From Felis catus (lineage: Eukaryota): a DNA stretch of 64,000 nucleotides. Under the pieces are notes generated by a model. The model was given only the letters and a program-made list of their open reading frames with translations. It ran no database searches and was not told where the DNA came from. Below are positions 5,952-57,479 of the stretch, one piece after another. The stretch lies in NCBI RefSeq assembly GCF_018350175.1, contig NC_058368.1:101496001-101560000 (forward strand). Direction: 5' to 3'. Each line of letters opens with the position of its first letter. The first letter of the stretch is position 1. Made by a program: the position numbers and the translations under genes.

Positions 5952-6066
5952 CCGAACAGGCCGGTGTAATCTTCGGCTCTACTCGGCTCTTTTCGCTGAT
6001 GCGGGAGCTTGGGGGCCACCGCCGCTAGAGAGACGCTTTCCTTTTTTTATTTTTTTTCCATGTGTT

Positions 6067-6075
6067 CACTTCCGG
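6067..6075 (-). promoter_or_regulatory. ETS/GABP motif at the probable TSS
   Basis: CACTTCCGG = reverse complement of CCGGAAGTG, typical of TATA-less housekeeping promoters. Confidence 0.7.
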
Positions 6076-6451
6076 GTCCGGCGCCGATCCGGATGCCCGA
6101 GGCAGAAGGATGTTTGACCTCCGGATAAGCGAGGCGCCGCTGTGCATTCATTCCCGGCTGCATCGGTGGCGACAGCAGCGACCCGGGCGGCGACTCTCCG
6201 GCCAGAGGCGGCGGTAGGAGGCACCGGCAGTAGTGCGGGGACCGAGTCCGAGCCGAGCTGCGTTCCCTCCCTCGCTCGTTCCTTCCCCCCCTACCTCACT
6301 CGCTCCCTCCCTGCGTGGCTCGCTTTCCTCCTCCGGTCGCCGGCGGGTGTGATGTGCCGCCGCCGCTGCCCCCGCCGCCGCTGACTGACGGAGCAGGGGG
6401 CGCCGCCCGCGCCCGGGACCGACCCCGCGAGCTCGCGGCCGCGCCTCTGAG
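6067..6451 (+). other. CSNK1G3: CSNK1G3 exon 1, non-coding 5'UTR (start approximate)
   Basis: Inside the CpG island; ends at donor GAG|GTAAAG (GT 6452-6453) followed by a G-rich intron start; TSS is inferred, not observed. Confidence 0.75.
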
Positions 6452-25779: not shown

Positions 25780-26022
25780 TTTTATTTTTGTTTTTTATTT
25801 ATTTATTCAATTTTTAAAAATATTTGTTTATTTTTGAGAGACAGGGAGACAGTGCACAGGCAGGGGAGAAGCAGAGAGAGGTAGGGAGACACAGAATCCG
25901 AAGCAGGTTCCAGGCTCTGCGCTGTCAGCACAGAGCCCGACGTGGGCTCGAACCCACAAACCTTGAGATCATGACCTGAGCCAAAGTCAGATGCTTAACC
26001 GACTGAGCCACCCAGGCACCCC
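25780..26022 (-). mobile_element. SINEC_Fc-type SINE
   Basis: Full body; TSD aaaaagttaat. Confidence 0.93.
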
Positions 26023-34400: not shown

Positions 34401-34616
34401 TTTTTTTTTTTTTTCAACGTTTATTTATTTTTGGGACAGAGAGAGACAGCATGAACGGGCAAGGGGCAGAGAGAGAGAGGGAGTCACAGAATCGGAAACA
34501 GGCTCCAGGCTCTGAGCCATCAACCCAGAGCCCGACGCGGGGCTCGAACTCACGGACCGCGAGATCGTGACCTGGCTGAAGTCGGACGTTTAACCGACTG
34601 CGCCACCCACGCGCCC
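34401..34616 (-). mobile_element. Young SINEC_Fc-type SINE
   Basis: CpG-intact body; TSD ggctgttgctttttt. Confidence 0.96.
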
Positions 34617-35067: not shown

Positions 35068-36802
35068 TATAACAATCTGAAAATAATGTAATTTCATATA
35101 CCATCCCCCTATGTGTGTTTCCATATATTTTACTTCCATTTTTGTTATAAATGACCCTGAGAAATTATCTGTGCTTCAAACAGTATTTTTTAAGGAAATG
35201 AATACCATGCATTTCTGATTTCTAGTGCTCTTGATACCTTTTGAAATTTCCACATTTCCTCAATTTGTAGGTTAATGTTTTTCATGGAACTTGGGACAGT
35301 TTCAACCATTATTTATTAAAATGTTTTTTTTTTTTTCTGCCCCATTTTTTTTTTTTAAATGTAATAGAACTTTAATGGCTATTTAGTAGTTTTGAAGACC
35401 TCTTTTCTAATTTCAGTATCAGTCATCTTGGAGTCTCATTCCTTTGACAGCTTGGTTTCCTGACTGTGCAGGAAATCTGTTTATTTGCATCTCTGGTAAT
35501 TTTTAACTGTGTGCTAGACATTTGATTTCAGCTTTGTTAAGAGTCCGGGTCTTTTGTCTCTTTAAGTTTGTTGAGTTTCTGGAATGGAGTTAATTTAATT
35601 GGATTATTCTTAATCCTATCTAGGCTTGGTTTTAGGCTTTAGTTGGGCCAGTCTAGCGTAGTTTTGATTCTAAGGTATGGACCTTACTCTTAAGACCTGG
35701 CCTTTGTGGTGGGTCAGCTCAGTTCCTGGGACATTACTGAGATTTCTCCATCATGACTACATAGGAACTTAAAGCTCTCCCAGCACTGTGCAGCCTTTAG
35801 TATGTCCATTATTCATTTAACCCCATAGTAGCCATGATCTACTAGATATTCCAGAATATTGCCACCCATATGTGTAGTCTAGTTTTTTGCCCTACCACTA
35901 CCTACCCCCCAGCTCTGTACCACTGCCTCACCTTGTTTACCATGTCCTGCAAATTTCACTTGCTTCAGCAGTGACTCTGATCTGTGATCGCTTTGTACTA
36001 TCTGTGTTTCACCTGTTCGTGCTGTAGTCACAAAATTATTTCTGGCTAGAGAGCTTGGGTAAAGGTGGGACTGACGTTATGCATTTCCTTTTTCTCAGAT
36101 ATCACAGACCACAGTGCCTATTATCCAGTGCCTGAAAAAGATGTTTCCTAAGTTTTATCCACTTTTACAGTTATTTACAGTAGGACATAGTTTCAGTATC
36201 AGTTATTCTATTATATTTGGAAACAGAGTAAACGGTATGTGTAGAACTTATTTGGTTTTACATATACCAAACAGAGGCTTACAGTTTTATCTGCAAACTG
36301 TCAGTATGGCAAATATAATAAGAAAATGTATAAACACATTGGCTGTTAGAACTAGTTGCATATTTGAGGGATTGTTGGAAATTGATCAGAAAATACTGTT
36401 TGTTTCAACTTCTGTTATGATTGCATTGTGTACTCAGTTTCAGAAATAGGAATTAGACATGATATTGATATTCCTCCTGGTTTTCTTATGTTTTGACGTC
36501 AAAGCTTCTTTAGTTGCAGAGTAGGAATCCACTCAAATTGGTAGGAGGATTGCTTACGCTTGCAGAATTGAGGCATGTTAGATGGGTGAAATTCCTAGGG
36601 GAGATGAATGGGGAAGCCTCCTCCAAAAACTTTTTTTTTTTTTGACCTTTACTGTTTTCATGTATATGTTAGAAAATTAGAAAACATATCACCCTTCTCT
36701 ACTTCATGAGGTTGATTCCTGCCAGTATTTCTTAATCTTGTGAAATTACATTTATATTTTAAAGTCTAGTTCATATGTTCCATAAGAATTAATTGTTTCC
36801 TG

Positions 36803-36915
36803 AGGGTGAGCAATTGCTCCTGCAGTGAGTGGACTTGTGACTCTTGATCTCAGGGTTGTGAGTTCGAGCACCAGTTTGGGTGTATAGATTACTTAAAAAT
36901 AAAATCTTAAAATAA
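36803..36915 (+). mobile_element. Short old-type carnivore tRNA-SINE lacking the CT tract
   Basis: gactcttgatctcagggttgtgagttcgagc B-box region, A-rich tail; TSD aattgtttcctg at 36791 and 36916. Confidence 0.8.
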
Positions 36916-37468
36916 AATTGTTTCCTGTGATGGGTGGCAAGAATATTCTTTGTAGTACCACTTCTGAAGTACATTTCTGTATATAGGCAATGGGTAATAA
37001 ATATTTGAAATAATGAAGATCAAATGAGAATGTATATTCAGAAAGACCTTGAGAATTATTGTGTATGGACACGTGGAAGGACATTTTAAGTAAAGTCTTT
37101 CACTAATTTGCAAAATGTATTCTCTTTTTCTGCTTTTAAATGGAAAATCTTATATTGCCTTGCTGGTAAGAATTGAAATGATTTTAAGTTGGGAGGTCTT
37201 AAGTTAGTGAATGTATTATATTAGCTTATGAAATAGTACATTTTTATTACATTTTTAATTTTTAATACTTTTTCTTTGGTTTTGTGATCTCTTTGGTATT
37301 AAAGTATAGGACAGATAGTAATGGCCACTTTAAGTCTACTGTGGTTTGATTTAAGTGGGAATCCATAAATTGCAATAATCCATTGCCTAAACTTAATGTT
37401 ATTAATTTCCCCAGAACACATTCTTTTACTTCTCTAAGTTGACCAATTTTCCTTTCTTAATATTTTAG

Positions 37469-37718
37469 CTCTCTATGAATATCAGCTTACATCGTTGAAA
37501 GGATAATTTGGAAGACATGTTTTGCTGAAAGGACAACTGAGAAAAATTTTACGAATGGGATGAACACGCGCCAGTTAACAGACTACCTACTGCAATTTGA
37601 ATGTTAACAATTACCCACCTGGTACAGTTAACCTAGTGATGTACCTATTCTCACAATACCCTATTTCAGTGTGCTTGTCTTGATTAAAGAATTCAAAGTG
37701 GAGTACCGCAAACTTGAT
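37469..37718 (+). other. CSNK1G3: CSNK1G3 exon 2, 5'UTR part (250 nt)
   Basis: Pyrimidine tract and acceptor ttttcctttcttaatattttAG (AG 37467-37468); continuous with the coding start; resembles the human exon 2 leader as I recall it. Confidence 0.85.
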
Positions 37719-37896
37719 ATGGATAATAAAAAGAAAGACAAGGACAAATCAGATGATAGAATGGCACGACCTAGTGGTCGGTCGGGACACAATACTCGAG
37801 GAACTGGGTCTTCATCTTCTGGAGTTTTAATGGTTGGACCTAACTTTAGAGTTGGAAAAAAAATTGGATGTGGCAATTTTGGAGAATTACGATTAG
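37719..37896 (+). CDS. CSNK1G3: Casein kinase I gamma-3, exon 2 coding part (178 nt)
   Basis: [59 protein letters not shown](G): CK1-gamma3 N-terminus and Gly-rich loop; Kozak gatATGG; donor TAG|GTAAGA, phase 1. Confidence 0.98.
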
Positions 37897-45682: not shown

Positions 45683-45723
45683 GGAAAAATTTATATACAA
45701 ATGAATATGTGGCAATTAAACTG
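45683..45723 (+). CDS. CSNK1G3: Casein kinase I gamma-3, exon 3 (41 nt)
   Basis: Acceptor ttctttttcaAG; encodes (G)KNLYTNEYVAIKL with the catalytic VAIK lysine; donor CTG|GTAAGT; phase matches exon 2. Confidence 0.97.
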
Positions 45724-50405: not shown

Positions 50406-50475
50406 GAGCCCATGAAATCCAGAGCACCACAGCTACATTTGGAATACAGATTCTACAAGCAGCTAGGATCTGGAG
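50406..50475 (+). CDS. CSNK1G3: Casein kinase I gamma-3, exon 4 (70 nt); gene continues beyond the window
   Basis: Acceptor tttttaattAG; encodes EPMKSRAPQLHLEYRFYKQLGSG; donor GAG|GTAAAG; phase-0 join to exon 3. Confidence 0.97.
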
Positions 50476-55362: not shown

Positions 55363-55560
55363 GGGGCGCCTGGGTGGCGCAGTCGGTTAAGCGTCCGACT
55401 TCAGCCAGGTCACGATCTCACGGTCCGGGAGTTCGAGCCCCGCGTCGGGCTCTGGGCTGATGGCTCAGAGCCTGGAGCCTGTTTCCGATTCTGTGTCTCC
55501 CTCTCTCTCTGCCCCTCCCCCGTTCATGCTCTGTCTCTCTCTGTCCGAAAAATAAATAAA
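55363..55560 (+). mobile_element. Young SINEC_Fc-type SINE
   Basis: CpG-intact body; 22-bp TSD aaacttgtatgattgatgttga at 55341 and 55558. Confidence 0.96.
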
Positions 55561-57479
55561 CTTGTATGATTGATGTTGAAAGTTTGATATTCCAATATTA
55601 TAAAAGATTGTTATGTTATTAAATTTTGAGTTTCATTTCTGATATAGAAACATAGCCATACAGTTTCAAAAAAATTTTTTTAAGTTTATTTCATTTGAAT
55701 TTTTCTCTAATTAGGAATTTTAAGTCCTCATTTTAGGGATCTAGAAACAGAAGGAAAAAAAATCAATGATAAGTATTCTTTAAATGAATGGAAATGGTAA
55801 ACCAAGGAGATAAGCAGATCGTTATCTAATTAACTGAACTGTACCATTCAGCCATCTAAAAATAATCACTTTCCAGAGAAGCATAGGTTTTTAATCATTT
55901 GAATAATTTATTTTTTTATTTATTTGAGAAAAAGTTCAGTTGAATTGTTGATACTTTATGAGAATGCCTGGAGTATATTTTGAAATTGATGGAGAGATTT
56001 CCTTTGATGAACCGTGATTCTGAGTGTTGCTTCTTTATGTTATTTCCTTCCGTCAGTTGGTTTTAATGAGCTATGTTGGGGGAAACGTTGCAATTATTTG
56101 TTCCTCAGAATTTCTCTATTAACTGATACCTTTATAATGGTAAAATAACCTTATTTTGTCATAAACTGTTACTTCCCAAAAGAAGTAGAATAATCTTTTT
56201 TTCTGTTATAAATTACTGTTGTTGGCAACTCTGTAAGTATAGAGATGATATTAAATATACTATTTGAGACTATGCTTATGTTAAATCATCGTTTCTAAGT
56301 TAGTGTCTTGACTTTTGATGTGCCCTGAAGTGTGTAGTTCTAAACAGTAATTTGATAATGGCATCGGTGGCTGTTTCAAAATTATACCTCTTCATAATAC
56401 CGCCTTCTGAGAGCTGTTACTTTAAAAGGCTTGTTTTCCTGCCTTATACTGACCCCTGTGCCTTCTCTGTTTGTGCCTTGTTAAGTCAGGATTTAGATGT
56501 GCCCTCTGTGTTTTGCTCTGGTGTATAGATGCCTCCATTTGCACATCCTTTTCCAAACTATTTATAGGGTCTGTCTGCTAGCTAAAAGACTGTTGGTGAT
56601 TCCATAATGTATGGACATTTGATCATAGTACTTTTAAGAAAGGTTGTATTAGGGTCAAACCTTGAAACCTGGCTATATACATTGGTTAATATCTAAAATT
56701 CCTTTAATTCTTTAAAAGCCTGATTCTTAGAGTTTGTCTGTTTTCAAGAAATTTAAGAAATTTTCTTCTTTCTGTGTAATCTCGTGTCTGAGAAAACAAA
56801 GAGAACATTGTAAAACACCATGGCAGTTAAGTGAATAAACTGATGAGAACATCGCCTGTTGTATTTTGGTATTAATGAAACTCATGAAGAACACTCTAGC
56901 GGTGGGTCAGTGGTTAGAGTAGACGTCATCTCAGCTCATGTAGGGGACAGTCGACGTAGCAGCTTCTGAGAGTTCCCTTCTCTGTCTCTGCTTGCTTGAT
57001 TTCAGAAGACATCTTAAGTGCACGTAATACTTCTGTTCCCTGTAGAGGCTTCTCTGTATGGGAATTTCTGTAAGTTACTCATTGCTGAACTTTTACCGAT
57101 TTGTACATGACTGCATATGTACATTGCTACTTTGCATAGAAGCGTACACAGTTTTTGTGTTAAAGTCATTATAGTTGATGGAGAAGGTCTGTTTGTAAAG
57201 AATGCTATGCATTATCAGTGTAAGAAAGAAGGGTTAACTGATAGTGGTTTCAGTTTGGTTTATCTGGTGCAGGTATTAGGGTGGTTGTATGGTGTGTGGT
57301 AATTAGAGCATTTTTAGTGATAAATTAAGCACATAAGAATTTTAAATAAATCCGTACCTTGGAATAGGGTAGGACTAAATGGTGATGGGTTTAATTTTCT
57401 ACGATACAGCCTCATTTTTAAATTTCTCTACGTAAGAGTAAAAGATTGAAAATGCAAAGCCATTAAAAACAATAGGATG

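Follow-up and report, generated by a model that had tools for sequence, protein, structure and literature searches.

The window, i.e. the whole stretch of 64,000 nucleotides that was analysed, contains the 5' half of the mammalian CSNK1G3 gene on the forward strand. An exon just beyond the window shares 68/68 positions with PDB chains of casein kinase I gamma-3, and exon 4 is matched at 20/20 positions by primers published for human and mouse. An earlier note on this DNA had named the gene and placed exon 2, and both are borne out, the exon lying at 37469-37896. A search of the species' own genome with exon 2 returned the locus itself only, without a retrocopy. The exons and the nearest pair of flanking inverted repeats are listed here.

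6000..6451, + strand: likely non-coding exon 1 in a CpG island, predicted from the sequence, with a GTAAAG donor at its 3' end and an approximate start
34419..34616, no strand assigned: repeat in intron 1, nearest inverted pair, 93.5% over 200 columns against 55364-55561
37469..37896, + strand: CSNK1G3 exon 2, 428 nt with AG/GT ends, 250 nt of it 5' UTR; in human and mouse its start serves as the acceptor when the circle is back-spliced
37719, + strand: main ATG, in exon 2
45683..45723, + strand: exon 3, 41 nt with AG/GT ends
50406..50475, + strand: exon 4, 70 nt with AG/GT ends and the primer matches; back-splice donor
55364..55561, no strand assigned: partner repeat in intron 4, inverted relative to 34419-34616

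Two other repeats lie in the window. A tRNA-like repeat at 25934-26017 on the minus strand is the sole Rfam match, and a second repeat, which has a poly-A tail, is found at 36800-36910, upstream of exon 2. Both are presumably tRNA-derived SINEs of carnivores.

According to the accessible parts of PMC8918408 and PMC8773908, the human circular RNA circCSNK1G3 consists of exons 2-4. The published junction shRNA and guide sequences from human and mouse align to the end of exon 4 and the start of exon 2, and the junction here equals the human one except at base 9 of exon 2. The predicted circle of exons 2-4 has a length of 539 nt, and these exons are flanked by 27 inverted repeat pairs, and by 34 direct pairs too. 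Judged by its splice junction and repeats, the circle is probably made in this species; in four of 24 public RNA runs, searched as assembled and filtered contigs, no cover was found for the 5' part of exon 2. In mouse sarcoma cells about 2200 copies of the circle per cell are reported in the available text of PMC9700836, and in prostate tissue the level of the circle is not below that of the linear RNA (PMC7672590).

The 5' UTR part of exon 2 carries a site with extended complementarity to miR-181b/d that precedes the main ATG by 113 nt and overlaps two short reading frames.

37560..37607, + strand: putative uORF of 15 codons that shares the frame of the main ATG and has the site as its codons 8-15 and first stop base
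37581..37605, + strand: extended complementary site for miR-181b/d-5p, by duplex pairing
37585..37592, + strand: second-register 3' helix, in which miRNA nt 16-23 pair contiguously (8 pairs, 6 of them Watson-Crick and 2 G:U)
37598..37604, + strand: 7mer-m8 seed match to miRNA nt 2-8, the sole miR-181 seed match of exons 2-4
37601..37636, + strand: putative second uORF of 11 codons in a weak context, with its ATG inside the seed match

To describe the pairing, six miR-181 hairpins were taken from the same genome and the ends of the 5p arms were assigned from the seed position. The two miR-181b copies give an identical 23-nt 5p arm. The 25 bases at 37581-37605 are exactly as the earlier note had given them, and miR-181b from the hairpins forms with them the same 18 Watson-Crick and 2 G:U pairs that it had counted. 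The 2-nt target bulge after nt 8 and the paired positions were also exact, with mismatches at nt 13, 16 and 22. We call this alignment the first register. The duplex energies of the site are -22.8 kcal/mol for miR-181d, -21.2 for miR-181b, -16.9 for miR-181a and -15.4 for miR-181c, and because of this the b/d members are favoured over a/c, as the note had proposed, with miR-181d pairing slightly stronger than miR-181b. The seed was drawn there as nt 1-8, and of this nt 2-8 holds. Since a T stands opposite nt 1, the site is of the 7mer-m8 class, and since nt 1 is unpaired within Argonaute the number of usable Watson-Crick pairs is 17. Slicing was considered and rejected, because nt 10-11 are paired only across the 2-nt bulge, followed by three mismatches. 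A perfect 8mer miR-181 seed match is also present in intron 1 at 37208-37215, about 255 nt upstream of exon 2, likely by chance in this AT-rich intron.

The criteria found in the accessible parts of PMC8653786 were coded as a Li-2021-style TDMD filter, including at least 8 consecutive 3'-end pairs and a central bulge of 1-6 nt. As a TDMD site the near full-length register of the earlier note is not supported, as miR-181b has only 5 contiguous 3' pairs in this best fold and fails the filter. A second register, in which nt 16-23 pair with 37585-37592, is the best fold of miR-181d. For miR-181b it is 1.2 kcal/mol less favourable than the best fold, contains 8 consecutive 3' pairs and leaves four central miRNA nucleotides unpaired. 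The seed pairs at nt 2-8, and the centre is either a 2-nt bulge or a 2x2 loop, which is within the range of the filter. Of the four miRNAs only miR-181d passes this filter, which also lets through 2 of the 52 natural seed sites and, among planted ones, 266 of 15000 (about 1.7%). The helix stretch 37585-37592 is predicted to be more open than 93% of 532 positions, and the seed is average, more open than 45%. Local folding gives equal accessibility in the circle and in the linear RNA, so structure gives no account of a circle-only role. The second register is an addition of this analysis; neither it nor the sub-threshold ZSWIM8 signal described below was found in the literature, where supplements and subscription journals are partly visible.

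To estimate how often such pairing is expected, we compared the site with the other natural seed sites, 52 in number, that occur in 528 kb taken from the window and 20 fetched stretches on both strands. None of the 52 matches its energy, i.e. the site is the best of 53. Planted seed sites equal the energy in 2400 of 40000 cases for miR-181b and in 660 of 40000 for miR-181d, i.e. 2-6%, and shuffles of the site's own flank do so in 1015 and 335 of 20000 cases, respectively. A pair-count score, devised after the site was seen, is equalled in 25 of 6000 cases. When miR-181b is shuffled and run over the 539-nt circle, an equal site appears by energy in 35 and by pair count in 2 of the 20000 trials; for 300 miRNAs the expected number of matches per circle is about 0.5 (0.53) by energy and 0.03 by pair count. 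Under the shuffled controls that the earlier note had called for, the pairing exceeds chance if a single miRNA is named beforehand and is marginal when every miRNA is considered. As 2-6% of the planted seed sites equal its energy, the sequence of the site is by itself suggestive only.

It is the published experiments rather than the sequence that carry the weight for a miR-181b/d site. The Discussion and the legend of Suppl. Fig. 7F in PMC11014252 describe human circCSNK1G3 as carrying a miR-181b/d site that is TDMD-like and has a protective effect, and include a scanMiR alignment with extensive 3' pairing. These sections state, citing Chen 2019, that knock-down of the circle lowers and overexpression raises miR-181b/d, and also that bulk target repression did not track the miRNA level upon knock-down. 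A lower level of mature miR-181b/d upon loss of the circle is reported for human PC-3 and ACHN cells in the open sections of PMC11014252 and PMC8918408, and the latter links the human circle to miR-181b by reciprocal pull-down and a luciferase test. The claim of miR-181b/d stabilisation by the human circle is repeated in the available part of PMC11953392. The site studied here is probably the orthologue of the human one, register included. The TDMD-like or protective function suggested in the earlier note agrees with the report on the human circle in these sections of PMC11014252, while the register as it was drawn is not supported. This reading is not new, because it has already been published there for the human circle. 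The feature is already known from human, and this analysis adds two leads, namely the second register and a ZSWIM8 signal below the threshold.

For mouse, the comparison consists of a single 22-nt primer that ends just before the seed. This circCsnk1g3 reverse primer is printed in near-identical form in Table 1 of PMC11805973 and in supplementary file 5 of PMC9700836, a paper available in part. Its best placement is 37576-37597, with 14/22 identical positions (8 differences), and an equal score is reached by 40 of 5000 shuffles under a transition-aware matrix and by 911 of 20000 when matches are simply counted. A placement at 37472, also with 14/22, was rejected as the published mouse junction guide has other letters there. 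Should this placement be correct, none of the 8 second-register pairs is lost in mouse, although the helix carries 3 substitutions, all of them transitions, which G and U tolerate; after 3 random changes all 8 pairs survive in 8-32% of the trials. The mouse stretch pairs nt 13-23 contiguously (11 pairs) with -15.5 kcal/mol, compared with -13.2 in the window, and the pairing of nt 10-11 in the first register, which the earlier note had drawn, is lost. With 8 random substitutions an energy at the level of the window or better is kept in 18-21% of the trials, and the mouse level is reached in 7-8%. An 11-pair run, a metric chosen post hoc, is seen in 0.3-0.6% of the 8-substitution trials and in 59 of 30000 random 22-mers. 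The support for conservation that the primer would give is thin but informative. The mouse primer had 0 matches among metagenome contigs, and a full-text search for the letters of the site found no CSNK1G3 paper besides the known mouse primer.

The uORF and 5' UTR setting proposed earlier is supported, with the site filling codons 8-15 of the putative uORF at 37560-37607. As it occupies the last codons of this uORF, the site likely acts in the circle, where it is probably clear of ribosomes. Canonical repression uses a 7-8mer in a 3' UTR, and here a 7mer-m8 is present but in the 5' UTR. Sites that lie within a 5' UTR or an ORF are called ineffective, as ribosomes displace the miRNA, in the accessible text of PMC11014252 and PMC12144122, and translation is described to suppress trigger sites in that of PMC12144122. 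Five of the 8 differences between the window and mouse fall on third codon positions of the uORF. Its peptide changes in 2 of the 6 codons fully covered by the primer (L>P and Q>T), and in the human primer codons 3-4 differ, with the upstream ATGs at 37555 and 37560 both kept. A full-text search for CSNK1G3 together with uORF found no paper. Upstream ATGs are densely packed in the 5' UTR, with six in exon 2 (37475-37683) and at most four in the likely exon 1 (6060-6352). The one at 37475 is missing from the human and mouse junction sequences, where a C replaces the G.

The response to ZSWIM8 loss was taken from Supplemental Table S1 of PMC10620050, as mean counts in 12 Zswim8-null embryo tissues from shared animals. 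There, miR-181a, b, d and miR-181c-5p are found in the expression sheet only and are absent from the authors' sensitive lists. miR-181b-5p is up in 11 of the 12 knockout tissues with a median log2 change of +0.16; the broad cut-off of the authors is 0.2, and miR-99b-3p, which they called, obtains +0.19 by the method used here. It exceeds the co-transcribed miR-181a in 12/12 tissues and miR-181d exceeds miR-181c in 10/12, with miR-181d itself flat (median -0.01). For 31 comparison strands, i.e. rows encountered with fair counts in all tissues among about 1,090 after low-count rows were dropped, the mean is -0.09, the standard deviation 0.08 and the maximum +0.013. Compared with its own low-count 3p strands, miR-181b-5p is ahead in only 7/11 and 7/9 tissues, and the unrelated pairs miR-140, let-7a/f and let-7i show 11/12 trends too. 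In the same nulls miR-7a rises about 5-fold (PMC10620050). The rise of miR-181b hints that it is weakly turned over through some trigger, and does not implicate Csnk1g3. The AGO-CLASH check proposed in the earlier note gave 0 matches, CSNK1G3 being absent from 11 of the 14 files (files 2 to 12) of the TDMD candidate hybrid table in PMC8653786, and neither miR-181 nor CSNK1G3 is mentioned in the main texts of PMC13369745, PMC12144122 (in its open part) and bioRxiv 2025.11.06.686990. One of the dropped low-count rows, miR-99a-3p, is up in 10/12 tissues, about +0.12 by hand, and was not called.

Among known systems, human circCSNK1G3 (hsa_circ_0001522) shares the gene, exons 2-4, the miRNAs and the one extended-pairing site. 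It belongs to another species, and here the feature is known from sequence, with the identity of the site presumed. Cdr1as carries dozens of miR-7 sites. The circle studied here, in contrast, has one miR-181 seed match in its 539 nt, and the host is a 5' UTR exon of a protein-coding gene. We know of no opposing trigger like Cyrano for miR-181b/d. The pairs Cdr1as/miR-7 and circRERE/miR-128-3p are likewise circRNAs with extended sites reported to stabilise their miRNA, in the accessible parts of PMC11014252 and PMC11953392. The second register resembles TDMD trigger sites in having a seed, a central loop and a contiguous 3' helix, but its helix has only 8 pairs, two being G:U, it lies in a 5' UTR uORF and not in a 3' UTR or lncRNA, and miR-181 is uncalled for ZSWIM8 sensitivity, unlike the strongly rising miR-7a. 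In the preferred reading the site would work like a protective site of the Cdr1as type, without the many sites of that family, and it is not filed as a TDMD trigger.

In our preferred reading, to which we give a probability of roughly 45%, a single high-affinity site on the exon 2-4 circle holds AGO-loaded miR-181b/d and protects them rather than destroying them. AGO-miR-181b/d would dock on the abundant, uncapped circle via the seed and the 3' helix, presumably with the seed, a central loop and then the helix on nt 16-23 as the working geometry, and the docked miRNA would stay bound and be stabilised. In the linear mRNA, scanning and uORF ribosomes would displace the miRNA, and the site would be mostly idle. 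The pairing, the b/d preference, the top energy among natural sites, the single seed match in the circle, the helix formed by the mouse primer stretch, the splice sites, the inverted repeats, the suppression of trigger sites by translation and the published human and mouse experiments argue for protection. Against it speak the rates among planted sites, the matches expected per circle over 300 miRNAs and the G/U-rich 3' end of miR-181b, which tolerates transitions, and one site per circle should count for little among the many seed sites of the transcriptome. The shortness of the mouse primer, the missing CSNK1G3 entry in the 11 hybrid files and the bulk targets that did not track the miRNA level speak against it too. 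The functional data from human are knock-down and overexpression in cancer lines, partly second-hand in the sections available. The planted-seed and shuffled-miRNA rates would also fit an incidental origin, in which an ordinary seed match adjoins a stretch rich in pyrimidines, an easy partner for the G/U-rich 3' end of miR-181b/d, any constraint on the region stems from uORFs or UTR structure, and the effects of the circle on miR-181 are indirect. The coincidence of the site with uORF codons 8-15, the further ATG held in the seed, the 5 of 8 mouse differences at third codon positions, the two upstream ATGs kept in human and the average accessibility of the seed are in line with this, as is another function of the circle, RIG-I binding or a RIG-I-linked role, reported in the open text of PMC9700836. 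However, the uORF peptide is poorly kept in both mouse and human, the 11-pair run is rare, if by a post hoc metric, and independent human experiments implicate the same miRNAs, and we find an incidental origin rather unlikely.

A role of the site as a weak trigger of ZSWIM8-dependent miR-181b/d degradation, exerted from the ribosome-free circle, is improbable. Such a trigger would agree with miR-181d passing the filter, with the 11-pair helix of the mouse stretch and with the trends of miR-181b-5p and of miR-181d over miR-181c in the Zswim8 nulls. But miR-181b fails the filter in its best fold, no miR-181 member is on the sensitive lists, the lead of miR-181b-5p over its own 3p strands is small, miR-181d is flat, unrelated pairs and miR-99a-3p trend likewise, and nothing connects the effect to Csnk1g3. 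Knock-down of the human circle, in the sources available to that extent, lowers miR-181b/d, i.e. the opposite direction. A stronger form, which we consider quite improbable, would make circCSNK1G3 an endogenous circular-RNA trigger of ZSWIM8-dependent miR-181b/d decay, with the seed and the nt 16-23 helix kept by covarying changes relative to mouse, masked in the mRNA by ribosomes on the uORF and activated by back-splicing; if true, it would explain the unreported, just sub-threshold rise of miR-181b in the Zswim8-null tissues. Action in the linear mRNA, where AGO at the uORF stop region would repress CK1-gamma-3 translation or alter re-initiation, appears very improbable. The 7mer-m8 with its strong supplementary pairing lies close upstream of the main ATG and overlaps the uORF stop and another upstream ATG, which would suit such a role, but the displacement by ribosomes described in the accessible text of PMC11014252 and PMC12144122 argues against it.

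Does a single extended site on a circRNA protect the miRNA or destroy it? This question is open in the field, and circCSNK1G3 is among the few abundant circles carrying such a site. The stretch 37585-37592 provides eight bases to mutate, and synonymous-only changes can control for the uORF. Together with the weak ZSWIM8 hint for miR-181b, this eight-base target makes the question directly testable.

In the predicted circle the main ORF crosses the back-splice junction and stops after 12 new residues (in 37469-37506), giving a truncated CK1-gamma-3 of 108 aa. A related product of 85 aa has been claimed for the mouse circle (PMC11805973). As its stop is upstream of the site, the 108-aa product would leave the miR-181 site uncovered.
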